Position numbers and translations under genes: made by a program. Below, piece by piece: positions 1 through 42,019 of a DNA stretch of 64,000 bases. Each line of letters begins with the position of its first letter. Positions within the stretch are counted from its first letter, which is position 1. Below the pieces are notes generated by a model. That model worked only from the letters and a program-made list of their open reading frames with translations, made no database searches and was not told where the DNA came from. Source of the stretch: Alphaproteobacteria bacterium (GTDB lineage: Bacteria > Pseudomonadota > Alphaproteobacteria > JACAEB01); assembly GCA_024236075.1 (NCBI GenBank), contig JACKLE010000006.1, positions 23,908 through 87,907 on the forward strand, written 5' to 3'.

Positions 1-702
1 GGGCGCGAAGAGACGCTCGACCGCGCCGCGGGCAGGGCCGTCCCCGACGATGGAAAGGCTCCAGGGCAGATCGGCGGCGGCATGCAGCGCCCGCGCGAGC
101 CGGGTATAGCTTTCGAGCTTGCGGCCCGCGCGCATCATGGCGACGGCGACAAGGCGGACGGGGCCGCCGGGCCGTCGCAGCGGCGGCTCCGGCCAATCGT
201 CCGTATCGAGAAAAGGCAGGAGGCGCAGCTTTTCCGTGCGCGGCGCGATGCGGTCGATCGCGGCCGCGTCGCGCGGACAGAGGCCGACGATGAGATCGGC
301 GCGGCGGATCGCGGCGAATGTCGCATGCGCGCCGGCGGCCCAGGGTCCCCGGCTTCGCCTGGGCGCGTGGGAGGCCTGCGCCACGACATAAGGAAGGCCG
401 AGCGCGTTCGCGAGGCCGGGGCCCACGAGGTCCGGCGCCTTGTAGTAGGGGTGATAGGCGAAGACGAGATCGGGCCGCCAGGACGATGCCGCGAGCCGCG
501 CTGCTTCCCGCGCGCCCGCTACCGCCGCGCGAGCCTGGAATTCAGGACGGCCGAGGCCGTCGAAGGTCCGGAGCCGCGAGGCGAGGCGCACCTCGTGGCC
601 GGCATGGCCGAGCGCGCGCATGAGAAGGCGCGCCATGGTGCGCTCGCCCGAGGGCCGGGGATCGTCGGGCGCCTTCATGGGCGAGAGGAACGCGACGCGC
701 AT
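1..702 (-). CDS. Glycosyltransferase family 1 (GT4-type), partial; C-terminus lies beyond window start
   Basis: Manual minus-strand translation from ATG at 702..700 gives MRVAFLSPMKAPDDPRPSGERTMARLLMRALGHAGHEVRLASRL...WRPDLVFAYHPYYKAPDLVGPGLANALGLPYVV...LVAVAMMRAGRKLESYTRLARAL...SIVGDGPARGAVERL with no stop down to nt 1. Not in the ORF track because it has no in-window stop. Its start overlaps the stop of the upstream GT gene (TGATG). Confidence 0.7.
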   Translation of the reverse strand, partial: MRVAFLSPMKAPDDPRPSGERTMARLLMRALGHAGHEVRLASRLRTFDGLGRPEFQARAAVAGAREAARLAASSWRPDLVFAYHPYYKAPDLVGPGLANALGLPYVVAQASHAPRRSRGPWAAGAHATFAAIRRADLIVGLCPRDAAAIDRIAPRTEKLRLLPFLDTDDWPEPPLRRPGGPVRLVAVAMMRAGRKLESYTRLARALHAAADLPWSLSIVGDGPARGAVERLFAP

Positions 703-1934
703 CACGCGGCCTCCCGCGCGCCGGGCGCTCCGATCGCCTCCGCGAGGAGCGCCGCGATGCGCTCGTGGCCGGCCTCGGGCCGGAACGCGGTCGCGACGCG
801 CGCCCGCCCGGCCGCCGCGAGCCGCGCGCGCAAGGCGGGATCGTCCGCGAGCCGAGCGATCGCCTGCGACAAGGCGAGCGGATCGGCCGGCGGCACGAGA
901 AGGCCCGTCTCGCCGTCCAGGACGAGCTCGGGGATCGCCGCATGGCGCGTCGCGAGGACGGGAAGGCCCATGGCCTGGGCTTCCAGGAGCACGTTCGGCA
1001 GCCCGTCGCGGTCGCCGTCGGCCGCGGTCTTCGCGGCGAGCACGAAGAGATCGGCATCGGCGAGGGCGGCGAGCACGGCGGGGCGCGCCTGCGCGCCGAG
1101 CCAGGACGTGCGGCCGGCGATGCCGAGCCGCTCGGCCTGGCGCTTCAGGCGCTGGAGCTGCGGCCCCCCGCCGATATGGGCGAACGACCAGGCGCGCGCG
1201 GGCTCGAGCCGTGCGAGCGCCGCGAGGAGATCCTCATAGCCCTTCTTCGGCACGGCGCGCCCGACGCTCACGATCCGAAGAGGCGCGCCGGGAGGCCTCG
1301 GAGGGCGCGCGGGCGCGTCGGGAAGCGCGAGCCCGTGATAGTGGCGCTCGAGCCTGGCCTGCGGCGCGAGCGCGGCGAGGCGCCGCGCGCCGTCCTGGGT
1401 GCAGGTCACGACGAAGCGCGCTTCGGCGAGCTTTTCGCGGGCCTCCCAGTCGGGAATCGTCCAGATGTCCTTGGCATGGGCGGAGACGGAGAAGGTCAGC
1501 CCACGCATGATCGCGGCATAGCGCGCGACGGATGTCGGCGTATGCAGGAAATGCGCGTGGAGATGCCTGGTGCCTGCGGGCAGCTCGGCCGCGAGCACCG
1601 CCGCCTGGCCGAAGCGGCGCACGCGATTGCGCGTCGGGTCGCGCGCAAGGTCTTCCAGGAACCGGCGCCATGCGTGCGAAAAGCCCGCAAGACGCGCGGC
1701 CGCCGCGAGGCCGGCCGCGACCCGGCGCGGCGCCTCGTGAAGATATTCCGGCAGATAGCGGACGGGCGCCGCGATCGCGTCGTGCACGGGGTGGGCGATC
1801 CTGTCCGTCGGGCGGCGCAGCGCGACGATCTCGAAGGCGAGCCCACGGGCCTCGAGCGCGGCGAGCTCGTCGGCGATGAAGGTCTCCGAAAGGCGCGGAT
1901 AGCCCTTGACGAGAATGACGAGGGCCGCGCTCAT
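702..1934 (-). CDS. Glycosyltransferase family 1 (GT4; WcaL/colanic-acid-type glycosyltransferase-like)
   Basis: ORF track 702..2237(-). The homology-bearing part starts at internal Met MSAALVILVKGYPRLSETFIADELAALEARGLAFEIVAL (ATG at 1934) and ends in a GT-B C-terminal region (GLPVLATRHAAIPELVLDGETGLLV). The start overlaps the stop of the upstream gene (ATGA at 1931-1934). Confidence 0.8.
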   Translation of the reverse strand: MSAALVILVKGYPRLSETFIADELAALEARGLAFEIVALRRPTDRIAHPVHDAIAAPVRYLPEYLHEAPRRVAAGLAAAARLAGFSHAWRRFLEDLARDPTRNRVRRFGQAAVLAAELPAGTRHLHAHFLHTPTSVARYAAIMRGLTFSVSAHAKDIWTIPDWEAREKLAEARFVVTCTQDGARRLAALAPQARLERHYHGLALPDAPARPPRPPGAPLRIVSVGRAVPKKGYEDLLAALARLEPARAWSFAHIGGGPQLQRLKRQAERLGIAGRTSWLGAQARPAVLAALADADLFVLAAKTAADGDRDGLPNVLLEAQAMGLPVLATRHAAIPELVLDGETGLLVPPADPLALSQAIARLADDPALRARLAAAGRARVATAFRPEAGHERIAALLAEAIGAPGAREAA

Positions 1935-3145
1935 GCGAAGGCCTCGGCCCGGCCCGTCGTTCGCGGGACCGCGCGCCCCGCCGCGAGGAGATCGCGCGCG
2001 CGCGCGACGACGACGGCGCTCCCGGTGAGAAGGTCCGGAAGGCCCGCGGCGGAAGGCGGAGGAGCGCTCGCGAGCCTCTCGATCGCCGCGAGCATGGCGC
2101 AGGTGTCGTCCGGCGGCGTCGCGAGGCGGTGCGCGAGCCCCAGGGCCTCGGCGCGGCGTGCACGGATGGTCTGCTCGGCGCGCGGGCCGGTGCGGGGCAC
2201 GAGCAGCGCCGGCCGGTCGTAGGTCAGGATCTCGCAAAAGGTGTTGTAGCCGCCCATGGCGAGGACGGCGGCCGCCTCGGCGACGAGGCGCTCGAGGCGG
2301 GGCTCGAAGCCGATGAAGGCGACGTCCGCCAGCCGCCGCGCGCGGGCCGAAAACGCCTTGGCGAGCGGCGCGGGGCAGAACGGCCCCGCCACGACGAGCG
2401 CGGGCCAGGGCAGGCGCGCGCCGCTCTCATAGGCCTTGAGCACGCCGTCGATGAGGGGCGCGCCGTCCGCGCCCCCGCCGGCGGTCACGAGCAGAAAGGG
2501 CCGCGCCCCGAAGGGACGCGCGACGGGCTCGGCGGCGGGCTGCCCGCGCCGGGGCAGATAGCCCGTGAAGACGGTGCGGGCCGCGACGTCCGGCGCGAGA
2601 GGGAGGCCCGCGAGGGGGTCGCAGACGGCGGCAAGGCCGTAGACCCAGATCTGGTCGTAGCGCGCGAGGGCCGGCAGCGCTCGCTTGCGCGCCCATTCGG
2701 CGGCGAGCGCGTCGGGCGCGTCGAGGACGTCGCGCAGACCGAGGACGCGCCGGGCGCCGCGCCGCTCGAGAAGATCGAGCGCCGGCTCCAGCTCGCCCTT
2801 GAGCCCGAGGGGCTCCTTGTCGACGACGAGCAGGTCCGGATCGAAGGCGCGCGCGGTCTCCGCGATGAGCGCCCGCCGCAGCTTCACGGTCTCGGCGAGC
2901 GGAATGGGCAGGCTCAGCGTCTGGTAGCTGCCGTCGCGCCGCTTGGTCACCCCCGGCAGGCGGACGAAATCGACATGCGCGCCGAAGGCGAAGCTGCCGG
3001 CGAAGGGCGAGCCGGTGACGATGAGCACCGAGGCGCGCGGCAGGCCGTCGACGAGGGCGTGGGCGAGGGCCCGGGCCCGGCGCAGGTGGCCGAGGCCCAG
3101 CGTGTCGTGGCTGTAGATGAGGATGCGCGTCTTCGCGGCCGTCAT
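1931..3145 (-). CDS. UDP-glycosyltransferase-like protein (GT-B fold, MurG/GT28-C-terminal-like family)
   Basis: ORF track 1931..3145(-). N-terminus TRILIYSHDTLGLGHLRRARALAHAL is typical of this glycosyltransferase family. First gene of a 3-gene GT operon. Confidence 0.7.
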   Translation of the reverse strand: MTAAKTRILIYSHDTLGLGHLRRARALAHALVDGLPRASVLIVTGSPFAGSFAFGAHVDFVRLPGVTKRRDGSYQTLSLPIPLAETVKLRRALIAETARAFDPDLLVVDKEPLGLKGELEPALDLLERRGARRVLGLRDVLDAPDALAAEWARKRALPALARYDQIWVYGLAAVCDPLAGLPLAPDVAARTVFTGYLPRRGQPAAEPVARPFGARPFLLVTAGGGADGAPLIDGVLKAYESGARLPWPALVVAGPFCPAPLAKAFSARARRLADVAFIGFEPRLERLVAEAAAVLAMGGYNTFCEILTYDRPALLVPRTGPRAEQTIRARRAEALGLAHRLATPPDDTCAMLAAIERLASAPPPSAAGLPDLLTGSAVVVARARDLLAAGRAVPRTTGRAEAFA

Positions 3146-3289
3146 GGCGCCTCGCCCCGAAAGTGGCCCCCTTATTCATAGGAAGCCCGCCGCCCCGCGT
3201 CATCAGGCGACGCGCACACGGTGTGACGGGCGCACGTCTCCCGGCCTTTCAAGCCCGCGCCATCTCACCTATCGTCCTGCCACGCGGCT

Positions 3290-6034
3290 TTGGGGGGCGA
3301 AGCGACGTTGGAACCCAACTTCTTCCGCTATGTCTGGCGCCACAGCACGCGCGAGCAGCTCGGCATTCTTGCGCTCGTCGTCCTGTCGCTGCCGTTCTAC
3401 TTCGCCTCGCTGAACCTTCCCAAGGCCATCGTGAACGGGCCCATCCAGGGCGAGGGCTTCGCGACGCCCGAGGCGACGGGCCGCTTCCTGACCGTCGCGC
3501 TGCCGGTGCCCGGCGGGGATGCGATCGAGCTCTTCTCGGGCTTCGACCTCACGCGCATGCCGATGCTCTTCGCGCTGAGCGGGCTCTTCCTCGCGCTCGT
3601 CTTCGTCAACGGCGCCTTCAAGCTTCAGGTCAACACGCGCAAGGGCGAGCTCGGCGAGCGCATGCTGCGCCGCCTGCGCTACGAGCTCGTCGACCGCGTG
3701 CTGCGCTTCCCGCCGCAGGAGTTTCGCCGCCGCAAGGCCTCCGAGATCGCGACCATGGTGAATGCCGAGGTCGAGCAGCTCGGCGGCTTCATCGGCGACG
3801 CCTTCGTTCAGCCCGCCTATCTCGGCGGCCTCGCCCTGACGGCGCTCGTCTTCATTCTGGCGCAGAGCTTCTGGCTCGGCGTCGTCGCGCTCCTCGTCGT
3901 CCTGGTGCAGGCCTTCCTCATTCCGCAGCTGAGGCGCCCGCTCCTCAAGCTCGGCCGCGCGCGCCAGCTCGCGGCCCGCGAGATGGCGGGGCGCGTCGGC
4001 GAGATCGTCGACGGCATCGTCGAGATCCACGCGAACGACACCTCGAACCTCGAGCGCGCCGACATCGCCGGCCGGCTGGGGCGCATCTTCCGCATCCGGC
4101 TCGAAATCTACGAGCGCAAATTCTTCGTGAAGTTCCTCAACAATTTTCTCGCCCAGCTGACGCCCTTCGTCTTCTACACGGCGGGCGGCTATCTCGCGAT
4201 CCGGGGCCAGCTCGACATCGGCCAGCTCGTCGCCGTCATCGCCGCGTACAAGGATCTTCCCGGACCCATCCGCGACCTCATCAACTGGGACCAGCAGCGC
4301 CTCGACGCCGAGCTGAAATTCGCGCAGGTCACGGAGCAGTTCGATCCGGAGGAGCTGCTCGCGCCCGAGCTCCAGCGTCCGGACGCGCCGGCGCCCGCCG
4401 CGCTCGCCGGAGGCCTCAAGGTGCAGAGCCTCGCCATCGCGGACGAGCGCGGGGCGCGCCTGCTGCAGGACGTCAGCCTGTCGGCGCGGCTCGACGAGCG
4501 CATCGCGCTGATCGGTCCTCCCGGCGGCGGCAAGGAGGCGCTCGCCTATGCGCTCGTCCGCCTTCTTCAGGCCGAGCCGGGCCGCATCGCCTACGGGGCG
4601 CACGATCTCGCCGCGCTTCCCGAGCGCGTCACGGGCCGGCGTATCGGGTTCGTCGGCCCGGATGTCTATCTGTGGCCCACGAGCGTGCGGGAGAATCTCC
4701 TCTACGCGCTGAAGCACGAGCCCCGGGGCGAGGCCGCGGCCGGCCTCAGCGCGGACGACATCCAGGAGGCGCGCCGCACGGGCAACATGCCCGCCGACGC
4801 TTCCGCCGACTGGGTCGACTACGAGGCGGCGGGCGCCACGGGTCCGGGCGACATAGAGGCGCGGCTGAAGGACGCGCTCACGCTCGTGGGGCTCGGCGAG
4901 ACCGCCTTCGAATGGGGCCTGCGGCTGCGGCTCGATCCGCAGCGCGAGCCCGCGCTCGCCGAGCGTCTCGTCGCCGCGGCCGAGGGCATCGCGGCGCGGC
5001 TTGCCGAGCCGGCCTATGCGAGCCTCATCGAGCTCTTCGACGAGGCCCGGTACAATCGCAATGCGACGGTCGCCGAGAACATCCTCTTCGGCAGCTCGTC
5101 CCATGCCGCGCAGTCCCTCGACGCCCTGCCGCGCAATCCCCATTTCCGCGCGGTCCTCGCGGCGGCGGGGATCGAGCGCGACGTCCTGGGCATGGGGCTC
5201 GCGATCGCCCGCACCATGGTCGAGCTCTTCGCCGATCTGCCGGCGGACCATCCCTATTTCGAGCAGTTCAGCTTCATCGCGAGCGCCGATCTCCCCGACT
5301 ACCGCGCCATCGTGCTGCGCCTCGGAGACGATCCCGGCGAGGCGGATCCGGAGACGCGCGAGCGCCTGCTCGCGCTTCCGCTGCGCTACATCGAAGCGCG
5401 CCACCGGCTCGGGCTCGTGGACGCGGCGATGGAGAAGCGCTTCGTCGCGGCCCGCGCCCTCTTCCGCGCCGATCTCCCTGCGGAGCTCAGGGGCGCCATC
5501 GAGTTCTTCGACCGCACCCGCTACAATTCCGCCGCGACGATCGAGGACAATCTCCTCACCGGCCGGGTCGCCTACGGCAAGGTCGATGCGGAGGCGCGCG
5601 TGCGCGCGCTCCTGCGCGAGGTCCTGGCGCGCGACGGGCTCGAGGACGAGATCCTGCGCGTCGGCCTCGACCATGCCGTGGGCACCGGCGGCCGGCGTCT
5701 CGGTCTTGCCGACCGCCAGCGGCTCGGCCTCGCGCGCGCGGTGCTGAAGCGTCCACAGCTTCTGGTCGTCGACCAGGCGCTCGCCGCGCTCGATCCGGTG
5801 AGCGAGGAGCGCGAGATGGGCCGCGTGCTGGCCTGGGCGCGCGCGCATGGCAGCGGCGTGGTGTGGGCGCTCTCGCGCCCGCACGGCGCGCGGGCCTTCG
5901 ACCGGGTGGTCCTTCTCGAAGGCGGACGCGTGACGGCGCAGGGAGGACCCGAGGTCGCCGATCGCTTTCTCGCCCGCGGCGCGGCCGAGGCGCCGCGGCC
6001 CGGTCCCGTCGCAGCCGCAGGAGCGCCATCATGA
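3290..6034 (+). CDS. ABC exporter, fused permease/ATPase, with a greatly expanded nucleotide-binding domain
   Basis: ORF track 3290..6034(+), TTG start (alternative TTG at 3308). N-terminal 6-TM exporter domain. Walker A-like IALIGPPGGGKE, Q-loop region GPDVYLWPTSVRENL, then ~300 aa inserted with two further Q-loop-like copies (RYNRNATVAENILFG, RYNSAATIEDNLLTG). Degenerate signature GTGGRRLGLADRQRL, Walker B LLVVDQALAALD, H-loop ALSRPHG. Confidence 0.75.
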   Translation: MGGEATLEPNFFRYVWRHSTREQLGILALVVLSLPFYFASLNLPKAIVNGPIQGEGFATPEATGRFLTVALPVPGGDAIELFSGFDLTRMPMLFALSGLFLALVFVNGAFKLQVNTRKGELGERMLRRLRYELVDRVLRFPPQEFRRRKASEIATMVNAEVEQLGGFIGDAFVQPAYLGGLALTALVFILAQSFWLGVVALLVVLVQAFLIPQLRRPLLKLGRARQLAAREMAGRVGEIVDGIVEIHANDTSNLERADIAGRLGRIFRIRLEIYERKFFVKFLNNFLAQLTPFVFYTAGGYLAIRGQLDIGQLVAVIAAYKDLPGPIRDLINWDQQRLDAELKFAQVTEQFDPEELLAPELQRPDAPAPAALAGGLKVQSLAIADERGARLLQDVSLSARLDERIALIGPPGGGKEALAYALVRLLQAEPGRIAYGAHDLAALPERVTGRRIGFVGPDVYLWPTSVRENLLYALKHEPRGEAAAGLSADDIQEARRTGNMPADASADWVDYEAAGATGPGDIEARLKDALTLVGLGETAFEWGLRLRLDPQREPALAERLVAAAEGIAARLAEPAYASLIELFDEARYNRNATVAENILFGSSSHAAQSLDALPRNPHFRAVLAAAGIERDVLGMGLAIARTMVELFADLPADHPYFEQFSFIASADLPDYRAIVLRLGDDPGEADPETRERLLALPLRYIEARHRLGLVDAAMEKRFVAARALFRADLPAELRGAIEFFDRTRYNSAATIEDNLLTGRVAYGKVDAEARVRALLREVLARDGLEDEILRVGLDHAVGTGGRRLGLADRQRLGLARAVLKRPQLLVVDQALAALDPVSEEREMGRVLAWARAHGSGVVWALSRPHGARAFDRVVLLEGGRVTAQGGPEVADRFLARGAAEAPRPGPVAAAGAPS

Positions 6035-6492
6035 CCAGCCTCGACGATGTCGTCCGCCGGCTTCAGACGCTGCCCTTCTTCGCGAACATGGATGCGGGCG
6101 TCCTGAAGCTCCTCGTCTTCACGAACGAGCGCCTGACCTACGAGCGCGGCGACGTGCTGTGCCGGCAGGGCGAGGTCGGCGACGCGGCCTATGTGCTGCT
6201 CGACGGGGAGGCGGAGGTGCTGGTCGCGACGGCCGAGGGTCCGGTCCGCGTCGCGGCGCTGAAAGGGGTGACGCTCGTCGGCGAGATCGCGATCCTCATC
6301 GACGTGCCGCGCACCGCGACCATCCGCGCCACGGGCCGGCTCGACGCCCTGAAGGTCACCAAGGAGCGCTTCTTCCAGCTCATGGAGGACTATCCGGGCA
6401 TCGCCATCGAGACCATGCGCGTGCTCGCGAGCCGGCTCGAGGCGACGACCGCCGAGCTCGCCAGGGCGCGCGCCGCGCTGCACGAGAAATGA
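6031..6492 (+). CDS. Standalone cyclic-nucleotide-binding (cNMP/Crp effector-type) domain protein
   Basis: In frame with the tail of track ORF 3163..6492. ATG at 6031 overlaps the ABC gene stop (ATGA). LPFFANMDAGVLKLL...GEIAILIDVPRTATIRATGRL is a canonical cNMP-binding signature. No DNA-binding HTH. Confidence 0.8.
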   Translation: MTSLDDVVRRLQTLPFFANMDAGVLKLLVFTNERLTYERGDVLCRQGEVGDAAYVLLDGEAEVLVATAEGPVRVAALKGVTLVGEIAILIDVPRTATIRATGRLDALKVTKERFFQLMEDYPGIAIETMRVLASRLEATTAELARARAALHEK

Positions 6493-6508
6493 GATTTGGA
6501 GGAATGCC

Positions 6509-6961
6509 ATGGCGCTGATCCGCACCGAGCCCGAAAAGGTCGAGGACTATCCGCCGAACATCCGCTCCATGATGAAGAAGCCCTCGCCGGCCGCCCGCAC
6601 GCTCGGGCTCAAGGTGGAGGCCTTCGACGTGGAGGGGGGCTATGCCGAGCTTTCCTTCGACGCCGGGGAGGGGCTTCTCAACAAATGGGGCGCCATCCAG
6701 GGCGGCATGGTCGCCGCGATGCTCGACGAGGCGCTCGCCCATGCCGCCGGCCTCACGCTTTCCTGGGGCGAGATCTGCCCCAATCTCGAGACCAAGGTGA
6801 GCTTCCTCTCGGTCGCCCGGCCCGGCCGCCTCCTCGCCAAGGGGCGCATGGTGAAGCGCGGCAAGCAGGTGGGCTTCGTCGAGGCCGAGCTGCGCGACGA
6901 GGCGGGCAAGCTGCTCGCCACGGCGACCGGCACCGTCGCCTTCATGGCCGCGAAGGGCTGA
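6509..6961 (+). CDS. PaaI-family hotdog-fold acyl-CoA thioesterase
   Basis: ORF track 6509..6961(+). ...WGAIQGGMVAAMLDEALAHAAG...GRMVKRGKQVGFVEAELRDEAGKLLATATGT is typical of PaaI/4HBT thioesterases. Confidence 0.85.
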   Translation: MALIRTEPEKVEDYPPNIRSMMKKPSPAARTLGLKVEAFDVEGGYAELSFDAGEGLLNKWGAIQGGMVAAMLDEALAHAAGLTLSWGEICPNLETKVSFLSVARPGRLLAKGRMVKRGKQVGFVEAELRDEAGKLLATATGTVAFMAAKG

Positions 6962-7638
6962 TGGGAACCCGCCTCCCATTCGAGTGGCCGCCTCGCCTCG
7001 AGGTCGGGGAGCGCATCCTGCACGTGCTGCCCGTCGTCGTGCCGCGAAAGGAGAGGCGCGGCCGTCTGTGGCTGCTTTGGGACATTCCTCGTTGGCTTGC
7101 CGGGGTTGGCCTTCTGCTTGGCGTTCTTGTCGTTCCTGGCGCCATCAAGTGGTTTGTCGAAGCTTGCGACGGGCGGCCGGTATCGCCGTCGAGCGTCGAG
7201 GCGTTCGTCTTGATCCTCGCCGCCATCCCTTCGGCCCTTGCGCTATTGGCCGGCGCCGGGGTGCTTGTCGCAATGGCGGTCGGCTTGGGCATTCATACCT
7301 ACCGAGCGCCCATTCGCTGGACTTTCGGCGGTCGCCGGGAGGATGAGCAGCGGAGCGCATGGCAGTTCGTCGTCACGACGCGGCGGCTGATCTACATAGA
7401 CGATTTCGAGGACGGCTCTTCTTGCGCCATTTCCTTTGCGTCTCTCGCCGGCTGCGTCCTCGGCATCGAGGGGGGGCGTCGAGGACGAAAGTTCCGCCTC
7501 GTAGCCAAGCGCAAGGAGCGGAATTGGCGTGGTCGAGAGCGCACCGAAGTCATCTTCGGGCCTCTTCCATCCGAGGACGACGCCCGCAGCCTGCTCGCTC
7601 ACATCGAGGCCGCCAGAAAGGCGTCCGCGGATGGCTGA
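6961..7638 (+). CDS. Membrane protein with bacterial PH (bPH_2/YdbS-like) domain; hypothetical
   Basis: Second half of track ORF 6496..7638. ATG 6961 overlaps the thioesterase stop (TGATG). Two TM helices followed by a PH-like beta domain (QFVVTTRRLIYIDDFEDGSS...RKFRLVAKRKE). Locally lower GC and T-rich third codon positions. Confidence 0.6.
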   Translation: MGTRLPFEWPPRLEVGERILHVLPVVVPRKERRGRLWLLWDIPRWLAGVGLLLGVLVVPGAIKWFVEACDGRPVSPSSVEAFVLILAAIPSALALLAGAGVLVAMAVGLGIHTYRAPIRWTFGGRREDEQRSAWQFVVTTRRLIYIDDFEDGSSCAISFASLAGCVLGIEGGRRGRKFRLVAKRKERNWRGRERTEVIFGPLPSEDDARSLLAHIEAARKASADG

Positions 7639-7641
7639 TCC

Positions 7642-8445
7642 TCAGCCCGCCTCCAGCTCCACCGTCACCGGGACGTGGTCGGAGGGGCGCTCCCAATTGC
7701 GCGCGGCCTTCAGGATCCGGAGACGCCCCGCAAAGTCCTTGAGCGGCGGGCTCACCCAGATGTGATCGAGCCGGCGGCCGCGATTGGAGGCCTCCCAGTC
7801 GCGCGCGCGGTAGCTCCACCAGGTGTAGAGCTTCTCGGGCTCCGGACGCTCCGCGCGCGCCACGTCGACGAAATCGAGCGTCTCGCGCAGGCGCGCCATG
7901 GCCTCGACCTCGACGGGCGTGTGGCTGACCACGTCGAGAAGCTGCTTGTGGCTCCATACGTCGTGCTCGAAGGGCGCGATGTTTAGATCGCCGACGAGGA
8001 CGATGCGGGCCTTCCGCCTGTCCTTGCGCCCCGCGAAATAGCCGCGCATCTCGTCCACGAAATGGAGCTTGTGGTCGAACTTCTCGTTGAGCGCGCGGTC
8101 CGGCACGTCGCCGCCGGCGGGAACGTAGAAATTATGGAGCTCGATGCCTCCGGGCAGGGCGACGGCGACGTGGCGCGCCTCGCCCCGCCGGCAGAATTTG
8201 GGGCGCGGGCCGGCCTCGAAGGGAACGCGCGAGAGAATCGCGACGCCGTGATAGCCCTTCTGGCCCGCGATCGCGGAATGGACGTAGCCGCGCTCGGAAA
8301 ACGGCGCCAGCGGGAACAAAGAATCCTCCGTCTTGGTTTCCTGGAGGCAGAGCACGTCGGGGGCCTCCTCCTCCAGGAAGCGCCCGACGAGGTCCGCCCG
8401 CAGGCGGACGGAATTGATGTTCCAGGTGGCGAGCTTGAGGCGCAT
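7642..8445 (-). CDS. xthA: Exodeoxyribonuclease III
   Basis: ORF track 7642..8445(-). MRLKLATWNINSVRLR...CLQETK...LVGDLNIAPFEHDVW...DHVPV is the EEP-family AP endonuclease signature. Confidence 0.92.
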   Translation of the reverse strand: MRLKLATWNINSVRLRADLVGRFLEEEAPDVLCLQETKTEDSLFPLAPFSERGYVHSAIAGQKGYHGVAILSRVPFEAGPRPKFCRRGEARHVAVALPGGIELHNFYVPAGGDVPDRALNEKFDHKLHFVDEMRGYFAGRKDRRKARIVLVGDLNIAPFEHDVWSHKQLLDVVSHTPVEVEAMARLRETLDFVDVARAERPEPEKLYTWWSYRARDWEASNRGRRLDHIWVSPPLKDFAGRLRILKAARNWERPSDHVPVTVELEAG

Positions 8446-8534
8446 GGCGGATCTGGCGGCGGCGGGGCGAGACCTCGCGCTTTAGCGAGGCGGCCGGACG
8501 CCTGTCCAGTCCTGCGCTCGCGAGGCGGCCGGCC

Positions 8535-8562
8535 GGGCTGTGTCACAGTTTCGACACAGCCC
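8535..8562. repeat. Perfect 10-bp inverted repeat hairpin GGGCTGTGTC-acagtttc-GACACAGCCC in a non-coding region
   Basis: Read directly from the sequence. Lies in the ~800-bp ORF-free region upstream of xthA. Confidence 0.6.
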
Positions 8563-8692
8563 TGTCCGTTCGCGCGATGCGTTCACGCCCAATTCACTGC
8601 CCGCCGTCGTGGATAGCGCCTGAAATGTCTTGACTTCCGTCCAGTCACGTGATCGTGGTGCGGCGAATCCGTGGCCTGGGCCCAAATAAAGT

Positions 8693-10957: not shown

Positions 10958-11033
10958 GGGGCAGTAGCTCAGTTGGGAGAGCGCGACGTTCGCAATGTCG
11001 AGGTCAGGGGTTCGATCCCCCTCTGCTCCACCA
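10958..11033 (+). tRNA. tRNA-Ala (anticodon CGC)
   Basis: Manual cloverleaf. Acceptor GGGGCAG/CTGCTCC with the G3:U70 Ala identity pair. D-arm GCTC/GAGC, anticodon stem CGACG/TGTCG, loop TTCGCAA (CGC), T-arm AGGGG-TTCGATC-CCCCT, discriminator A, encoded CCA. 76 nt. Confidence 0.9.
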
Positions 11034-24258: not shown

Positions 24259-24333
<75 letters not shown>

Positions 24334-26825: not shown

Positions 26826-29003
26826 ATGGGGAACCCGAAAAAGATTGCAGCATGGGCGGTGCTCGGGCTCGGCGCGCTCGCCGCGGCCGGGCCGGCGCAA
26901 GCCATAGACCAGATCGTCGTCACCGCGCAAAAGCGTGCCGAGGCCCTGAGCGAGGTTCCGCTGGCGGTCACCGCCCTCTCGGGCGAAGAGGCCGACCGGC
27001 TCGGCCTCGACAGCACGCTGGGGCTCGCGGGCCACGTGCCCGGAGTGGCGATCGGCCAGAACTCGGGCGAGGGCGATTTTCCGTTCATCTCGATCCGCGG
27101 CGTCACCATGCGCGACTTCGCGGACACGAACGAGAGCCCGTCGGCCGTCTATCTCGACGAGTTCTACAAAGCCAATCTCATGGGGCTCGACAGCCAGATC
27201 TTCGATGTGGAGCGCATCGAGGTTCTGCGCGGGCCGCAGGGCACGCTCTACGGCCGCAACGCGACGGGCGGCGTCGTCAAATATGTGACGCGGAAGCCGG
27301 GCGAGGCCTTCGAGGGCCATGCCTCCGCCTCGGTCGGCGAGTACGGCCGCGTCAAGCTCGAGGGTGCCGCCGGCGGGCCCCTGGCGCCGGGCCTCGCCGG
27401 CCGCCTCTCGATCCTGCACCATCGGCACGACGGCTACACGAGGAACATCTATCCCGGTGCGGACGACGGCAACGCGCTCGACGTGACGGCCGTGCGCGGC
27501 CAGCTCGCCTACCGCCCTTCGGCGGACCTCAAGGTCTCGCTCCTCGTGCAGAACTATCTCAACGACAACGATGCGGGAAACATGTTCTCGCACCGCGTGG
27601 TCGGGGTCGATCCGGTCACGGGCCTCGCCGTGCCGGCCGCGAGCGCGCTCGCGACGGATTCGTTCGGCTATCGCGATCCGACGCCGGGCGATGCGCGCGA
27701 CACCAACTCGAACCGCGACATCTATCTCGATGTGAAGCAGCTCACGGCCGTCGGCACGGTCGAGTGGACCCTCGGCGAGATCGCGCTCACATCCGTGACC
27801 GGCTACGAGAAGACGAGCAAGGACGCGCTCTTCGACAGCGATTCGAGCCCCAATCCGCGCGGCACGGAGACCCATCCCGACGGAGTCGAGTTCGCCGAGG
27901 AGCTGCGCCTCGCGGGCCGCCTCGGCACCGTCGACTGGCTCGCCGGCATCTATTATTTCAACTACGACATTTCCGGATATCAGCGCCGCCAGACCTCGGC
28001 GGCCGGACCGCGCCCGCCCGTCTTCTTCGGGCTCCAGACCGAAAGCTGGGCGGCCTTCGCCAGCCTCGACGTGCCGATCACGGACAGATGGAGCTTTTCG
28101 GGCGGGCTGCGCTACACCGCCGACGACAAGGACTATGCGCTCTTCAACAGCGACTTCGGCGTCGTCTTCAACAAGTCGACCGCGGGCGAGGCCGCGACGC
28201 GAAGCGACGACAATCTGAGCTTCGACGCCCGCCTCGCCTACAGGCCCGCGCCGGGGCATCTCGTCTACGCCGGCATTGCGCGCGGCTTCAAGGGCGGGAC
28301 CTTCAATGTCGGCTTCACGCCGATAAGCGCCGACGCGATTCCGGTCGAGCCGGAGCGGCTCACGAGCTACGAGGTCGGACTCAAATCCGCGTTCTTCGAC
28401 GAAAGGCTCCGCCTCGACCTTTCGGGCTTCCGCTACGACTATGCCGACTCGCAGGCCTTCCAGTTCGACGGGCGCACCTTGAGCGCGACCACGTTCAACC
28501 GCGACGCGGAAATCTGGGGCGCCGAGCTGGAGGCCTCCGCCGCCCCCGCCGAGGGCCTCGATTTGCGACTCGTCGGAGCCTGGCTCGACGCGACCTTGAA
28601 GGACGTCGAGCTGCCCGGTCCCTCCTTCCTCGGCGGCATCGTGGTGGACCGGCGCATGCCGCTCGCCCCGCGATGGAGCTGGACCGGCCTCGTGCGTTAC
28701 GCCTTTCCGCTCTCCTGGGGCGGGTCGATCGCGTTGCAGGGCGACGTCGCCTACAAGTCCGAGCAATATTTCGACGCCTTCAACAGCCCGAGCCATCGTG
28801 AGGACGCCTATGCGGTCGGGAATGCCCGCGTGTCGTGGCTGAGCCCGGACAAGAAGCTCGAGCTCGCGGTCTGGGCGGAGAATATTTGGGACACGGAGTA
28901 CCGGACCTACGCCTTCGACCTTTCCTTCCTCGGCCTCGCGACGGATGTCTGGGGCAAGCCGCGATGGGTCGGCGCGACGGCGACCTATCGCTTCGGAGGC
29001 TGA
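26826..29003 (+). CDS. TonB-dependent outer-membrane receptor
   Basis: ORF track 26826..29003(+). Signal peptide MGNPKKIAAWAVLGLGALAAAGPAQA, TonB-box-like IDQIVVTAQKR, plug motifs (RGPQGTLYGRNATGG), 22-strand barrel-length C-terminal region. Confidence 0.85.
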   Translation: MGNPKKIAAWAVLGLGALAAAGPAQAIDQIVVTAQKRAEALSEVPLAVTALSGEEADRLGLDSTLGLAGHVPGVAIGQNSGEGDFPFISIRGVTMRDFADTNESPSAVYLDEFYKANLMGLDSQIFDVERIEVLRGPQGTLYGRNATGGVVKYVTRKPGEAFEGHASASVGEYGRVKLEGAAGGPLAPGLAGRLSILHHRHDGYTRNIYPGADDGNALDVTAVRGQLAYRPSADLKVSLLVQNYLNDNDAGNMFSHRVVGVDPVTGLAVPAASALATDSFGYRDPTPGDARDTNSNRDIYLDVKQLTAVGTVEWTLGEIALTSVTGYEKTSKDALFDSDSSPNPRGTETHPDGVEFAEELRLAGRLGTVDWLAGIYYFNYDISGYQRRQTSAAGPRPPVFFGLQTESWAAFASLDVPITDRWSFSGGLRYTADDKDYALFNSDFGVVFNKSTAGEAATRSDDNLSFDARLAYRPAPGHLVYAGIARGFKGGTFNVGFTPISADAIPVEPERLTSYEVGLKSAFFDERLRLDLSGFRYDYADSQAFQFDGRTLSATTFNRDAEIWGAELEASAAPAEGLDLRLVGAWLDATLKDVELPGPSFLGGIVVDRRMPLAPRWSWTGLVRYAFPLSWGGSIALQGDVAYKSEQYFDAFNSPSHREDAYAVGNARVSWLSPDKKLELAVWAENIWDTEYRTYAFDLSFLGLATDVWGKPRWVGATATYRFGG

Positions 29004-29152
29004 GCGGGGGCGGGACGGGCGCGGCCGGCGACGGGTTGCGCGGCATCGCCCGATGCCGGAGCATCGCGAGGCGTTCGCCCGCCCGGGCCGGCTACCCGGC
29101 GCCGGCGGCGCGAGCGCAGGGGTCCACCCGCCCGAACCGACGATGGAGCGAC

Positions 29153-32100
29153 ATGCCGACCGTTCTCAGCCCGGCCGAGGCCCTCGGCCTTTCCGGGGCC
29201 GCATTGGACGGGCGCGTTCAGCGCGCCGTGCATCATATCGGCGACGCCACCTTCCGCCGGCTCGCGGAGCGCATGCAGGCGGACGCGCTCGCGAGCGACA
29301 TGATCTATGAGCGCGACGGTGCGCGCGAGCCGATCCGCATCCTTCTGCGCCCGCTGCTCGCCATGCCCGAGCAGCTCAGCTATGTGCACCATGTCTGCTT
29401 CACGCTGACGGAAGCGCTGAAGCGCCTGCCCCAGCTCTGGTTCGACGATCCCGACGCGCGCCGATGCCTCGCGCTCGGCGCGGACGAGGAGGCATGGTTC
29501 CGCGACGCCTGGACGCCGGCGCATCAGCGCAACAATCCGATCTATGGGCGCCTGGACGCCGTCTGCGACTTCACGGGCGCGGCCTGGCAGGATTCCTTGC
29601 GCTTCATGGAGGCCAATCTCTCCGGGGTCGGCGGAATTCACTACTCGCCCCTCGCCGAGCAGCTCGTCATGCGCGACATCGTGCCGACGCTGCGCGCCCA
29701 CGATCCCGGGCTCGATCTGGAGCTGCCGCGCGACCAGCGCGAGCTGTTCCTCCAGGTCCTCATCGACCATGCCCGCGCCATCGGCCGGGGCGCCTGCAAT
29801 GTCTGCTTCGTCGAGCCCATCTATGTGCACGACGGGCCGGACGAGCAGTCCGTCCTTAGCAGATATCTCGAGGAGCGCCATGCGCTCACCACCGCCCATG
29901 CCGATCCGCGCGATCTCACGGTCAGGGGCGACGACGTCTTCCACAAGGACGTGCGCGTCGATCTCGCCTACCGCGACTACGAGCTGCGCGATCTCGTCGC
30001 GCTCGAGCGCGAGCTCGGCCGGCGGCTCGACGGCATGCGGCTGCTCTTCCGGCAGAACCGGGTCGTCTCCTCGCTCGTCGGGGATTTCGACCACAAGAGC
30101 TGCCTCGAGATCCTCACCGACCCCGTGCTCGCCGAGCGCCATTTCGGCATGGAGGAGGCACGCGTCTTCCGGCGCCACGTGCTCTGGACACGGATCGTCT
30201 CCGAGCGGCGGACGAGCCTGCCGCATCGCGAGGAGGGCGACCTCGTCGACTTCGCGAGGCGCCATCGGGAGGAGCTCGTCCTGAAGCCCAATCGGGGCTA
30301 TGGCGGCAGGGGCGTCGTCTTCGGCGCGGCGATCGGCCAGGGGGAATGGGAGCGCCTCATCGGCGAGGCCGCGGCGGCGGCCGACGATCCCGAGCGCTCA
30401 TGGGTCGTGCAGTCGGCGACGCGCCTGCCCGTGCACGAATTTCCCGTGCTCGGAGAGGACGGGCGCGTGTTCGGCGAGCCCTTCTACGCGGTCATGGGAT
30501 TCACGGCGACCGACAGCGGGCTCGGCGTCGTCTGCCGCGTGTCGCAGAAGCAGGTCGTGAACATCGCCCAGCGCGGTGGGATGGCCGCCGTTCTCGTGGC
30601 GCGCGCGCCGGGCGAGCTGCGCATCCCCAAGCGCCCCGTCAAGGCCGGGGCCGAAGCGACGCCCGGCGTGCGCGCCGAGATCGGCGAGCTGCGGCGGCTC
30701 GACCAGACGATCGCGCTCCTGGGATGGGACGAGGAGACCATGCTGCCGGCCGCGGCGCGCGCCGAGCGCGGCGACCAGCTCGCCTCGCTCGAGGCGCTGC
30801 GGCACAATCTTCTGACCTCGGATCGTCTCGGCGACCTCATGGAGGAGGCAGCGCTCGAGACGGAGGGCGATCCGCGCTGGACGCGGGAGCTCGCGCTCCT
30901 GCGCCGATCCCGGCGCCAGGCCCTCGCCTTGCCCGAGGAGCTGATCCGCGCGTTCGCGCAGGCGAAATCGCGCGCGCTCGGGGCCTGGGAGGAGGCGCGG
31001 GCTCAGGACGACTTCGCCGTGTTCGCGCCCGCGTTCGAGACGGTCCTCGGTCAGGCGCGCGAGCGGGCGCAGGCGCTCGCTCCGGGCGAGGAGCTCTACG
31101 ACGCCGCGCTCGAGGATTTCGAGCCCGGCATGACCCGCGCGCGGCTCGATCCCGTGCTCGGCGAGCTGCGCGACCGGCTCGCGCCGCTCGTTCGCTCGTC
31201 CGCGGAGCAAAGCGCGTCGTCGGCGCCTTCGCCCGAAGGCCGGATGGTTCCCGAGGCGGCGCAGTGGGAGCTCTGCCGGGACCTTCTGGCCGCGATCGGC
31301 TTCGACTTCGCGCGCGGGCGCCTCGACCGGTCGACGCATCCCTTCACGCTGCTCGCCGGCGCGAACGATGTGCGGCTGACGATCCGTGTGCACGAGGACA
31401 ATGTGGCGTCGACGATTCTCACCACGCTGCACGAAGGGGGACACGCCCTCTACGATCAGGGACTGACGCAGGGCGATCGCGACTGCCTCCTGAGCGACGC
31501 GCCGAGCATGGGGCTGCACGAGTGCCAGGCCCGCCTGTGGGAGAACCATGTCGGTCGGCTCGGCGCCTTCTGGGCGCATTTGCTGCCGGCGCTGCGCGCG
31601 CGGTCCGGGGCCGCGATGGACGGGCTCGACGCCGACGCCTTCCGCCGCGCCGTCAATCGCATTCGTCCCTCGCTCATCCGCGTCGACGCCGACCCGGTCT
31701 CCTATCATCTGCACATCTTCATGCGCTACGAGCTTGAGATCGCGCTCTTCTCCGGCGCTCTCGCCGTTCGGGATCTGCCCGCCGCCTGGCGGGAGCGGAG
31801 CGCGGCGCTCATCGGCGCCGCGCCGGCCTGCGACCGCGAGGGCGTGCTGCAGGACGTCCACTGGGCGCAGGGGCTTTTCGGCTACTTCCCGTCCTACACC
31901 CTAGGGAGCCTCTATGCGGCGCAGCTCGTGGAGGCCTATGAGCGCGATCATGCGCTTGCGGACGAGATCGGGCGCGGCGATTTCGCGAGCCTGCGCGGCT
32001 GGCTGGCCGAGCGCGTCTACGCCCACGGGCAGCTATACTCGGCCGAGGAGGTCGTCTTGCGGGCGACCGGCAAGGGCCTCGACGCCGGCGCCTTTCTGCG

Positions 32101-32176
32101 CCACATCGAGAGGACCGCCGACGGGCCGTCCGGGGCGGGTCAGACGGCGTCGCGCAGAGGCTCGCCGCGCAGATAG
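29153..32176 (+). CDS. Fusion protein: N-terminal circularly permuted ATP-grasp amidoligase domain + C-terminal M32 (Taq-type) zinc carboxypeptidase
   Basis: In-frame ATG inside track ORF 28835..32176 (no stop for 1007 codons). N-terminal half carries CP-ATP-grasp-like blocks (NPIYGRLDAVCDF...FMEANLSGVGG; LVLKPNRGYGGRGVVFG; SWVVQSATRLPVHEFPVLGEDG). C-terminal half carries M32 motifs (LLGWDEETMLP, HPF, HEGGHALY, DVHWAQG, GYFPSYTLG). Confidence 0.7.
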   Translation: MPTVLSPAEALGLSGAALDGRVQRAVHHIGDATFRRLAERMQADALASDMIYERDGAREPIRILLRPLLAMPEQLSYVHHVCFTLTEALKRLPQLWFDDPDARRCLALGADEEAWFRDAWTPAHQRNNPIYGRLDAVCDFTGAAWQDSLRFMEANLSGVGGIHYSPLAEQLVMRDIVPTLRAHDPGLDLELPRDQRELFLQVLIDHARAIGRGACNVCFVEPIYVHDGPDEQSVLSRYLEERHALTTAHADPRDLTVRGDDVFHKDVRVDLAYRDYELRDLVALERELGRRLDGMRLLFRQNRVVSSLVGDFDHKSCLEILTDPVLAERHFGMEEARVFRRHVLWTRIVSERRTSLPHREEGDLVDFARRHREELVLKPNRGYGGRGVVFGAAIGQGEWERLIGEAAAAADDPERSWVVQSATRLPVHEFPVLGEDGRVFGEPFYAVMGFTATDSGLGVVCRVSQKQVVNIAQRGGMAAVLVARAPGELRIPKRPVKAGAEATPGVRAEIGELRRLDQTIALLGWDEETMLPAAARAERGDQLASLEALRHNLLTSDRLGDLMEEAALETEGDPRWTRELALLRRSRRQALALPEELIRAFAQAKSRALGAWEEARAQDDFAVFAPAFETVLGQARERAQALAPGEELYDAALEDFEPGMTRARLDPVLGELRDRLAPLVRSSAEQSASSAPSPEGRMVPEAAQWELCRDLLAAIGFDFARGRLDRSTHPFTLLAGANDVRLTIRVHEDNVASTILTTLHEGGHALYDQGLTQGDRDCLLSDAPSMGLHECQARLWENHVGRLGAFWAHLLPALRARSGAAMDGLDADAFRRAVNRIRPSLIRVDADPVSYHLHIFMRYELEIALFSGALAVRDLPAAWRERSAALIGAAPACDREGVLQDVHWAQGLFGYFPSYTLGSLYAAQLVEAYERDHALADEIGRGDFASLRGWLAERVYAHGQLYSAEEVVLRATGKGLDAGAFLRHIERTADGPSGAGQTASRRGSPRR

Positions 32177-41700: not shown

Positions 41701-41855
41701 GCCCTCTCGCCCAGCTCGCCGGCGAGCGGCGCCTCGGCGAGAAGGCGCGGCACCAGGCTTTCCTCGCTCTCGAACGCGTCCGCGTCCAGCTTCGGCCAGG
41801 ACGCGTCCACGAGCGCGGCAAGCTCGGCCGCGGATGGGGATCTCCGGCGAGCCAT
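38718..41855 (-). CDS. putA: Bifunctional proline dehydrogenase / L-glutamate-gamma-semialdehyde (P5C) dehydrogenase
   Basis: Track ORF 38718..41942(-). Start at MARRRSPSAAELAAL (ATG 41855). PRODH barrel and ALDH catalytic motifs (FTGSTETARAI; EAG GKNA-like GGLNAMLV; catalytic Cys region SAFLSAGQRCSSLRVL). No N-terminal RHH DNA-binding domain. Confidence 0.9.
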   Translation of the reverse strand: MARRRSPSAAELAALVDASWPKLDADAFESEESLVPRLLAEAPLAGELGERATAEAARLIGAARARAGEHSLLDAFLGAFGLTDAEGVALMCLAEALLRVPDAATADALIADKVAHGAWEEHLGRSHSLLVNAATYGLMLTGRIVELGEDSGSEPLGLLRRVAARGGEPLVRAALVSAMRILAGEFVMGRTIEEALSRARNAPAGARFSFDMLGEGARDRASAERYAAAYEHAIAALGDGHVGETAEGNGISVKLSALHPRYDVAHAELVHAELYPRLLALCEGAATRGLALTVDAEEADRLELSLSLFRRLAGEPGLGSWEGLGLAVQAYGKRARAVVAWTGELARAGGRRFGVRLVKGAYWDSEIKRAQERGLPGFPVFTRKAATDLSYLVCARDMFRAGSALFPQFATHNAHTIAAVMALAGPRRDFEFQRLYGMGERVHAAAHELVASMPATRVYAPVGGHRDLLAYLVRRLLENGANTSFVNRFLDAEAPPELLARDPATALAALRPFPHPAIRAPSALYGEERENSSGLDLADRRVLARIAAACDAEAGRVRGGAAGKGASIESRNPARPDDVLGVLAEPGGEEIASALAAAAAAQPAWDRLGGERRAGLLEAVAARLEADKLPLMALIIREGGRTIGDAESEVREAVDFCRYYAARARADFAAPARLPGPSGEANRLGLHGRGVFACISPWNFPLAIFTGQVAAALAAGNCVLAKPAEETPFVAAEAVAHFHAAGVPRDALAFLPGRGESVGARLVAEPRIAGVAFTGSTETARAINRALAARDGPIVPFIAETGGLNAMLVDSTAVPEQVVDDVVRSAFLSAGQRCSSLRVLMVQEEIANDLLALLGGAMDALVLCDPRACDSDIGPIIDAAARGRLEAHIIRMQESGHRVRAARIGVPDQGHFFAPHLVEIDRLSEIGGEVFGPILHVRRIRAEGFAAAVDELNALGFGLTFGLQSRIGAAVEEALAGVRAGNAYVNRHMVGAAVGSQPFGGEGLSGTGPKAGGPHYLTRFAVERVLSENLMALGGSRDLLALGDE

Positions 41856-42019
41856 GCCCTCACCTTCCTCGCGCGAGACGGAATTCGGGAATCGACCCCG
41901 ATCGCGCGGCATTCGAGCAGAGAATGGGATCGCGCGCCGCAATTTCCATGCTTGTCCTAAACCCGAAACACACGATCTTTCGTCAAGGCTTTCGTCTGCG
42001 CACAGCTAGAGGAGATGGG

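Follow-up and report, generated by a model that had tools for sequence, protein, structure and literature searches.

What drives and controls a protein with the fold of an ABC (ATP-binding cassette) exporter, when the motifs of its ATP site are degenerate? ABC exporters are textbook ATP-driven pumps, and the question is raised by a locus in a 64 kb stretch of DNA from an alphaproteobacterium (contig JACKLE010000006.1), which is referred to here as the window. The locus, dealt with at window positions 1–8445, encodes an ABC protein in which one block of the nucleotide-binding domain (NBD) occurs three times, and a stand-alone cyclic-nucleotide-binding (CNB) protein follows it. We propose, with slightly better than even confidence, that the two form an exporter or conduit, probably for a glycoconjugate, that is impaired in ATP hydrolysis and regulated by a cyclic mononucleotide (cNMP).

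Triplicated block and degenerate ATP site of the ABC protein

The ABC gene (3308–6034, + strand) encodes 908 residues when read from TTG 3308 and 914 residues when read from TTG 3290, and its product contains an ABC_membrane domain (PF00664) and a split ABC_tran domain (PF00005). TTG 3308 is most likely the start codon, because the product that begins there (MEPNFFRYVW) matches the N-terminus of the family (MExNLFKYIW). NCBI annotates the same gene starts, with an ABC protein of 908 residues. Residue numbers given below follow the 914-residue frame.

The ABC protein is an MsbA-type (type IV, ABCB-like) half exporter. PF00664 matches residues 97–318 (1.7e-16, 61 bits against a cut-off of 28 bits), and the AlphaFold2 (AF2) model, built on the family alignment, has a local confidence score (pLDDT) of 90.1 and a global score (pTM) of 0.86. 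The top Foldseek matches of the whole protein are TmrAB, MsbA, TM287/288 and PCAT1 (~1e-16 for TmrAB, MsbA and TM287/288). The transmembrane domain (3290–4339, +), which is defined by Pfam ABC_membrane and the AF2 model, has the type IV exporter fold with six long helices (residues 11–52, 89–139, 150–192, 194–241, 252–304 and 327–350) and a small β-hairpin region between TM1 and TM2. It is strongly conserved across the family, with many invariant residues. Its most conserved stretch, EVEPLGGFIGDAFVQP (window 3769–3814, residues 160–175), includes several invariant residues and coincides with the sole low-confidence break in the modelled TM3 (pLDDT <50 at residues 172–177).

The NBD of this protein is interrupted. 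The Pfam ABC_tran match is limited to residues 392–497, which correspond to profile positions 1–80 of 137, and the NCBIfam and PDB alignments resume at residues ~732–791 and run to ~888. Taken together, the Pfam, NCBIfam and PDB alignments split the NBD into residues ~376–497 and ~790–888. As a comparator, we used a canonical ABC exporter from the same window (626-residue open reading frame (ORF), 51680–53560, −), which has full consensus motifs (GRSGAGKST, LSGGERQR, ILVLDEATSALD and IAHRL). Residues 396–509 of the comparator correspond to residues 388–498 of the ABC protein, and residues 507–600 to residues 790–885. The canonical exporter thus aligns contiguously across the gap, and ~290 residues are extra in the ABC protein. 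Pfam gave ABC_tran alone for the canonical exporter at E ≤ 1e-5.

The insertion consists of two further copies of the block formed by the Q-loop strand and the helical subdomain. The N-terminal part of the NBD (4415–4630, +), with its degenerate Walker A motif, is followed by repeat R1 (residues 448–577; 4631–5020, +), which is supported by the ABC_tran profile match and HHalign and contains the strand IGFV, a Pro at the Q-loop position, SVRENLLYA and then helices that resemble the helical subdomain. R2 (residues 578–734; 5021–5491, +), supported by HHalign, HMMER and a pLDDT of 91–98, contains IELFDEARYNRNATVAENILFG, helices and the patch TMVELFADLPxxHPFFEQFSFI, in which the insertion is most conserved. 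R3 (residues 735–840; 5492–5809, +), placed by the NCBIfam and PDB alignments and the motif census, contains IEFFDRTRYNSAATIEDNLLTG, the degenerate signature LGLAD, the Walker B motif LLVVDQ and the D-loop ALD, and continues without a gap into the canonical C-terminal half. In the C-terminal part (5810–5959, +), the H-loop position reads ALSRP without His, and a disordered tail extends up to the stop codon.

For the comparison of the repeats, the family alignment was cut into five parts: R1, R2, R3, the N-terminal NBD (376–447) and the C-terminal NBD (841–890). HHalign pairs R2 with R3 at a probability of 97.5% (E = 7.6e-12), R1 with R2 at E = 3.2e-5 and R1 with R3 at E = 4.8e-5; the controls against the other NBD parts give E values of 0.09–0.5. 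Under relaxed settings, the R2–R3 alignment reaches the equivalent of the signature helix (R2 ~687–694, R3 ~806–813). When a hidden Markov model (HMM) was built from residues 476–736 only, its profile positions 110–169, which belong to R2, matched residues 737–795 of R3 (HMMER, 26 bits, E = 2.5e-10). The same kind of double match of the insertion HMM ('2 stretches') appears in most family members in a library-wide search. On the Pfam ABC_tran profile, R1 maps to positions 1–80 and R3 of the relative P0217 to positions 62–131, so that they share canonical columns. In the AF2 model, each copy comprises a short strand (452–455, 580–582 and 737–739), a short helix bearing [ST]-h-x-[ED]-N-h-L-x-G, and helices that end in a G-L motif. 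R2 alone matches nothing in Pfam, the PDB or Foldseek.

An earlier note on this DNA had proposed a triplication of the region between Q-loop and signature, and the HHalign and HMMER statistics support it. All the motifs that it listed lie where it placed them: Walker A GPPGGGKE (residues 409–416, nt 4514–4537), the repeat motifs SVRENLLYAL (nt 4682–4711), ATVAENILFG (nt 5063–5092) and ATIEDNLLTG (nt 5534–5563), the signature region GTGGRRLGLADRQRL (nt 5681–5725) and LLVVDQ (nt 5759–5776). Its reading of the repeated motif as the Q-loop itself has to be corrected, as the motif lies just past the Q-loop. The insertion does not stem from a frameshift or a sequencing error, since 120 homologues of ~905 residues align through it at 50–60% identity with invariant residues inside it. 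A low-complexity or disordered insertion is ruled out by the model, in which the insertion is folded into defined helices and strands at a pLDDT of 91–98.

Homologues of ~905 residues number in the thousands and occur in more than 593 species genomes. An insertion-profile search of 1.84 billion representatives returned 1182 clusters at 50% identity with E ≤ 1e-3, and 433 with E ≤ 1e-30. Neither the family nor its insertion is covered by a curated NCBIfam or Pfam model, the NCBIfam exporter models all score far under their cut-offs (for example MsbA, 137 bits against 602), and literature searches found nothing specific to it. The family is widespread, uncurated and apparently undescribed.

The motifs of the ATP site are degenerate family-wide, which is a more surprising feature than the triplication and had been missed before. 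In a census of 120 family members, the Walker A Lys is present in 80 (Arg in 15, Ala in 12, Gly in 5 and Val in 2). The residue after this position is Glu or Asp in 111 members and Ser or Thr in 5, and the Walker B Asp is replaced by Asn in 104. The catalytic Glu is found in 74, the Q-loop Gln in 59 and the H-loop His in only 20 of the 120. The family signature, L-[STN]-[AGS]-[AVT]-Q, has lost both glycines. In the window protein (motifs GPPGGGKE, LGLAD, LLVVDQ and ALSRP, with Pro at the Q position), Gln takes the place of the catalytic Glu, and the Ser/Thr of Walker A, the glycines of the signature, the His of the H-loop and the Gln of the Q-loop are missing. Some members that are fused to a CNB domain have no recognisable Walker A motif ('APSEEDRR', 'TSNQTERV') or signature ('LPAVF') and still keep the R2 and R3 motifs (xSVAENLLFG and xSIQDNILFG). 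Near-canonical motifs are seen in a few members, among them L089 (GPGGSGKG and LSGGQ) and L103 (GQSGGGKS and an H-loop His). What the family has conserved, in place of its catalytic residues, is the D-loop Asp, the signature-helix R-Q, a Trp that is invariant and the motifs of the repeats.

No second ABC_membrane gene was found within ~10 kb in the window or in the related loci L081, L083 and L084, and the only other exporter of the window is encoded 46 kb from the ABC gene. With one ABC gene in the locus, a homodimer would hold two identical degenerate sites, so that the term asymmetric, used for the NBD in the earlier note, is misleading.

The CNB protein and the gene neighbourhood

The CNB gene (6031–6492, +) encodes 153 residues, in which PF00027 is the sole domain (2e-16, 60 bits against a cut-off of 27.5 bits) and is followed by one C-terminal helix only. 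The protein has no helix-turn-helix, as had been noted, and the CRP and FtrB models cover the CNB part only and score far under their cut-offs. The start codon overlaps the stop of the ABC gene (ATGA, 6031–6034), likewise in line with the earlier reading. NCBI names the product 'cyclic nucleotide-binding domain-containing protein'. In 79 orthologues the phosphate-binding cassette, VGEIAIL..VPRTAT, is kept, and the closest PDB relatives are the CNB domains of PKG, PKA and SthK. The protein is predicted to bind a cyclic mononucleotide; the identity of the ligand is not a given, as the CNB domain of HetC binds guanosine tetraphosphate (ppGpp) (PMC10986499).

A tblastn census places a CNB orthologue directly downstream of the ABC gene in 78 of 80 related loci, and the two exceptions stop at a contig edge. 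The CNB proteins are 147–156 residues long, the ABC–CNB spacer has a median of ~27 nt, and the overlap of the two genes is seen only in the window genome. About 17 of the top 150 insertion-profile matches are 1026–1206 residues long. All nine of the long members tested are fusions of ABC_membrane, a split ABC_tran and a C-terminal cNMP_binding domain. Two of the nine (P0217, L085 1798–5418; and P0248) carry an extra C-terminal GGDEF domain, which suggests cross-talk from cNMP to cyclic di-GMP on an ABC-fold membrane protein. The window CNB protein aligns with the fused C-terminal domain of P0140 without gaps at 39% identity (E = 2e-31), a divergence that about equals that of the ABC parts. That the two parts are fused in some members and encoded side by side in the others points to a physical partnership of the ABC and CNB proteins, and these alignments identify the 153-residue protein as a putative detached C-terminal regulatory domain of the ABC protein. 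That the CNB gene is functionally tied to the ABC gene and conserved with it, as the earlier note had supposed, is borne out by the 78 adjacent pairs, the fusions, and the cyclases and phosphodiesterases encoded next to relatives. Readthrough of the ABC stop codon was considered for seven metagenomic loci, in which a CNB ORF lies in frame past a single stop (L088, L092, L095, L098, L109, L116 and L160), and was rejected: the spacers are ordinary ones with a Shine–Dalgarno sequence and an ATG.

Enzymes that make or degrade cyclic nucleotides recur in the vicinity of relatives. A cyclase HMM applied to the alphaproteobacterial loci detected 26 ORFs in ~22 loci, and a nearby cyclase is found in 13 of 84 metagenomic loci, in six of them directly past the CNB module. 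In the recurring class III cyclase, a 2Fe-2S ferredoxin (Fer2) domain precedes the catalytic domain. The gene for this Fer2 and Guanylate_cyc protein comes right behind the CNB gene in L010 (13173–14996), L021, L030 (6495–8759), L033 and L071 (13207–14931), and also in L107 and L131 (11209–12981); it may be a redox-sensing cyclase that feeds the ABC–CNB system. A class III cyclase gene overlaps the fused ABC–CNB gene in L084, and L087 contains a second CNB protein. Directly upstream of fused genes lies a gene for an Apyc1-like cyclic-nucleotide phosphodiesterase of the metallo-β-lactamase fold (PF23023, 1e-29), located at 5192–5971 in L086, 7006–7911 in L105 and 7082–7891 in L161.

On the other side, the ABC gene is divergent from a glycosyltransferase (GT) operon. 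The first gene of the operon (1931–3145, −) encodes a GT28-C/MJ1255-like glycosyltransferase of 404 residues, which gives weak Glyco_tran_28_C and TIGR00661 matches and is named 'hypothetical' by NCBI. Its orthologue in L081 is above the Glyco_tran_28_C cut-off, and homologues occur in 68 of 83 related loci. The second gene (702–1934, −), whose start shares 4 bp with the stop of the GT gene upstream of it, encodes an EpsE/WcaL-like GT4 glycosyltransferase of ~410 residues (Pfam Glycos_transf_1, 6e-32; NCBIfam EpsE, 4.6e-46, under cut-off), with homologues in 65 of the 83 loci. The 3′ part of a third gene (4–702, −), which runs off the left end of the window, encodes a GT4 glycosyltransferase of the 382-residue type (46% identity in tblastn with the L081 protein) and belongs to the same co-conserved operon. 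The divergent intergenic (promoter) region (3146–3307), as read from the sequence, contains no sigma-70-like site, inverted repeat or Rfam match, and no riboswitch, promoter, terminator or operator was found in a search of 3000–8600.

The gene order of the divergent operon in relatives, with 4-bp overlaps, is GT28-like (407 residues), GT4 (424 residues), GT4 (382 residues), His_Phos_1, GT28_C (410 residues), DUF2334-like (273 residues), a small membrane protein (181 residues), a double ABC ATPase with oligo_HPY, and SBP_bac_5. Despite rearrangements, the GT genes have homologues in 56–68 of 83 loci. The GT genes lie upstream and on the same strand as the ABC gene in Mesorhizobium-type loci, and the order is ABC–CNB–cyclase–GT4–DUF2334-like on one strand in the gammaproteobacterium Plasticicumulans. 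Because the linkage survives rearrangement, the cargo in the alphaproteobacterial branch is most likely a glycoconjugate, which is the least secure part of our proposal. The earlier suggestion of a second-messenger-gated exporter of an acylated or glycosylated product is accordingly reasonable for the glycosylated product; the thioesterase on which an acylated cargo would depend is not conserved, which leaves that part without a basis. In L081 (1–3494) and L083 (1–3346), in a region that corresponds to sequence beyond the left edge of the window, the GT operon runs on into the oligo_HPY double ABC ATPase and SBP_bac_5, and a Dpp/Opp-type importer appears to be co-transcribed with the glycosyltransferases there.

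Two further genes follow the CNB gene in the window. A hotdog-fold (PaaI-family) thioesterase of 150 residues (6509–6961, +; PF03061, TIGR00369) starts 16 nt past the CNB stop, and a 225-residue protein (6961–7638, +) starts at ATG 6961 with a TGATG overlap; both junctions had been described correctly. The name PaaI thioesterase holds at the family level, where TIGR00369 is passed (59.6 bits against a cut-off of 36.6), and fails at the level of the PaaI equivalog TIGR02286 (42 bits against 119). No paa genes lie nearby, and the NCBI name is 'PaaI family thioesterase'. The 225-residue protein has two hydrophobic segments by hydropathy and no recognisable domain, and is called 'hypothetical protein' by NCBI. 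The bPH_2 domain (PF03703) once assigned to it is not seen, as neither the whole protein nor its C-terminal 125 residues has a Pfam match at E ≤ 1, and it matches nothing in NCBIfam, PADLOC or the PDB. Of 81 alphaproteobacterial loci, only 6 have a thioesterase gene after the CNB gene; so does the closest relative, L168 (60% identity), whose fourth gene encodes a Na/Ca exchanger. The usual third gene in relatives encodes a 162-residue Methyltransf_17 protein (46 of 83) or a cyclase. Homologues of the 225-residue protein are absent from all 80 related loci, and the protein is seen in the window genome only. The four genes are not one conserved unit, as had been assumed: synteny rules out the thioesterase and the 225-residue membrane protein as core parts, and both are lineage-specific additions. 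The end of the unit is marked by a convergent gene of the exo/endonuclease/phosphatase family (XthA-like; 7642–8445, −; PF03372, 7e-28), a gene that many related loci also have downstream, on the opposite strand.

Rfam matches in the window are limited to tRNA-Ala(CGC) (10958–11033) and tRNA-Thr(CGT) (24259–24333). Five genes elsewhere in the window (26826–29003, 34063–36126, 36733–38706, 38718–41942 and 57969–61508) are unrelated to the finding and include no nucleotide cyclase; they encode two TonB-dependent receptors, a CHASE8-HAMP hybrid histidine kinase, a PutA-type proline dehydrogenase/aldehyde dehydrogenase and a POR/TPP/DUF6537 oxidoreductase. In the 1113-residue ORF at 28835–32176 (+), the M32 carboxypeptidase domain is confined to residues 614–1093. 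The first ~170 nt of this ORF overlap the end of the TonB-receptor ORF, Pfam matches nothing in its first ~600 residues at E ≤ 1e-5, and its true start probably lies much further downstream.

Proposed mechanism and competing explanations

In the mechanism that we propose, a cyclic mononucleotide, which in many relatives would be made by the class III cyclase encoded directly downstream, binds the CNB protein. The CNB module, probably a dimer formed via its C-terminal helix, would dock on the enlarged NBD, probably at the conserved patch of R2. Ligand binding would control NBD closure and hence the opening of the transmembrane pathway. Bound ATP, if any, would serve as a non-hydrolysed glue or co-ligand and not as fuel, because the catalytic Glu is naturally Gln and the Walker A Ser/Thr, signature glycines, H-loop His and Q-loop Gln are lost; the cyclic nucleotide would be the controlling input. 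The pathway would open for the product of the divergent operon, with its two GT28-like and two GT4 glycosyltransferases, histidine phosphatase and DUF2334-like protein. A stronger version, which we regard as tentative, takes the family to be an ATP-hydrolysis-independent, cNMP-gated conduit on the ABC exporter fold and a bacterial counterpart of CFTR. NBD closure and the opening of the pore would then be driven by direct binding of cNMP to the C-terminal or detached CNB domain and not by ATP turnover, the triplicated helical subdomain would act in transmission and docking, and the lineages without Walker A would work without ATP.

Several points weigh against the proposed regulated exporter. 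No cyclase gene was found in the 64 kb window. A subfamily of ~880–930 residues (L114, L115, L120–L122, L129, L130, L132, L134 and L164) keeps the insertion and has no adjacent CNB gene, though the contigs run several kb downstream, so docking of the CNB protein cannot be the only role of the insertion. No structural match was found for the insertion alone. The fused members L084 and L086 have no GT operon, and the cargo may therefore vary by branch or be no glycan. Moreover, a heterodimer partner may be encoded elsewhere in the genome. The window protein retains the Lys of Walker A, the Asp of the D-loop and the R-Q of the signature, and K-E paired with Asn could form a Mg2+ site in which the two changes compensate each other and ATP hydrolysis persists.

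If such a site were functional, the protein would be an ordinary ATP-driven exporter, whose activity the extra modules and the CNB protein only tune. The co-occurrence of Walker A Glu/Asp (111/120) with Walker B Asn (104/120) is compatible with a charge swap, Lys or Arg is kept in 95 of the 120 members, and L089 and L103 come close to the consensus. The combined loss of the catalytic Glu (to Gln), H-loop His, signature glycines and Q-loop Gln in the window protein makes this improbable; engineered E-to-Q substitutions abolish hydrolysis in canonical ABC proteins, and in ~16% of the family the Walker A Lys has given way to Ala, Gly or Val. The decayed site also bears on a second possibility, in which the ABC protein is an efflux valve for the cyclic nucleotide itself. 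The CNB protein would sense the cytoplasmic level and open the exporter on a rise, alongside the phosphodiesterase. Eukaryotic ABCC4 and ABCC5 export cyclic AMP (cAMP) and cyclic GMP (cGMP), and the recurring neighbours in distant branches are indeed cyclases (L084, L107, L131, L010, L021, L030 and L071) and the Apyc1-like phosphodiesterase (L086, L105 and L161); fused members without a GT operon fit as well. However, uphill export needs an energy source that the decayed ATP site would hardly provide, the GT linkage survives rearrangement in the alphaproteobacterial branch and in a gammaproteobacterium, and the ABC–CNB–GGDEF fusions resemble signalling proteins rather than pumps. We consider the valve unlikely.

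Those same fusions, with their C-terminal GGDEF output domain, favour a non-transporting scaffold, that is, a membrane-anchored switch as in SUR or FtsEX, which would couple cNMP to the glycosyltransferases or to GGDEF outputs. Some members lack Walker A and signature altogether, and conservation is concentrated on the D-loop, the signature-helix R-Q, the invariant Trp and the repeat motifs instead of the catalytic residues. This explanation is also unlikely to be correct: the strongly conserved transmembrane domain, with its many invariant residues, has the fold of substrate exporters, and the P-loop is partly intact in the window member and some relatives. The architecture of class III cyclase, CNB domain and membrane protein further recalls a Pycsar-like anti-phage module, in which a CNB-controlled membrane effector would kill the infected cell. 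PADLOC reports domain-level matches (the CNB protein to the CNB region of PycTIR at 47 bits, the cyclases to PycC at ~80 bits), and the phosphodiesterase belongs to the Pfam family of Apyc1. These matches concern shared domains only, and the ABC part matches no defence model. Instead of a variable island, the locus sits in stable core-genome synteny (xthA, lolA, ftsK and amtB) over hundreds of species; the window has no cyclase, and the linkage is to glycosyltransferases. A defence role is therefore very improbable.

To our knowledge, degenerate ATP sites are known only beside a working second site. A widespread single-gene family of this kind is a natural experiment on the ABC fold without its engine, and should interest specialists in ABC transporters and in bacterial second messengers. 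The proposed regulated exporter, if real, would be a new class of direct membrane effector for bacterial cAMP/cGMP signalling, beyond CRP-type regulators and channels. In many Alphaproteobacteria, Mesorhizobium among them, it would also tie this signalling to glycoconjugate export. Cultured strains include relatives, which makes the idea directly testable.

Comparison with known systems

The MsbA, TmrAB and TM287/288 half exporters, which give the best Foldseek and sequence matches, share with the window family a six-helix ABC_membrane domain followed by one NBD. They differ in lacking the ~290 extra residues of the two added helical-subdomain copies and in having no such degenerate catalytic motifs. 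Substitutions at the catalytic Glu, H-loop and signature, and a non-hydrolytic site that holds ATP as structural glue, are familiar from heterodimeric exporters and CFTR. In these heterodimeric or full-length proteins with a degenerate ATP site, the other site stays active (PMC7756269). Their second NBD thus keeps one hydrolysing consensus site, whereas the locus described here shows one NBD only. CFTR is also similar as a gated conduit under cAMP-pathway regulation; the regulation occurs through PKA phosphorylation there and would occur through direct cNMP binding here.

Regulatory domains lie C-terminal to the NBD in MalK, MetN and ModC, and large insertions between Q-loop and signature are found in SMC/Rad50 and UvrA. 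In the former, as proposed for the CNB protein, a ligand-binding domain past the NBD controls NBD closure, but these domains are not CNB folds and the systems are importers. The latter use the same insertion hot-spot, with coiled coils or unrelated domains in place of tandem helical-subdomain copies. In Pycsar effectors (CNB with transmembrane helices or TIR), a CNB domain controls a membrane protein, and some of our relatives are adjoined by a class III-type cyclase. The window locus differs from these effectors in its core synteny, its GT-operon neighbourhood, its ABC-fold membrane part and the absence of a cyclase in the window.

An ABC exporter with a fused or neighbour-encoded domain of the cNMP-binding type is found in HetC and the NHLP-bacteriocin exporters (TIGR03796, TIGR03797 and TIGR03896). 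The NHLP models score far lower on the window proteins than required (143 bits against 853, 121 against 709 and 37 against 161), and the window has no peptidase domain and no adjacent HlyD gene. HetC of Nostoc PCC 7120 carries an N-terminal CNB domain by a C39 peptidase; this domain binds ppGpp and is required for function, and the ATPase's catalytic residue is essential (PMC10986499). In the window family, unlike in HetC and the NHLP exporters, the CNB domain is C-terminal or separate, peptidase and HlyD partner are missing, and the NBD is degenerate. With its CNB domain on an ABC exporter, HetC is the nearest analogue that we found in the literature.

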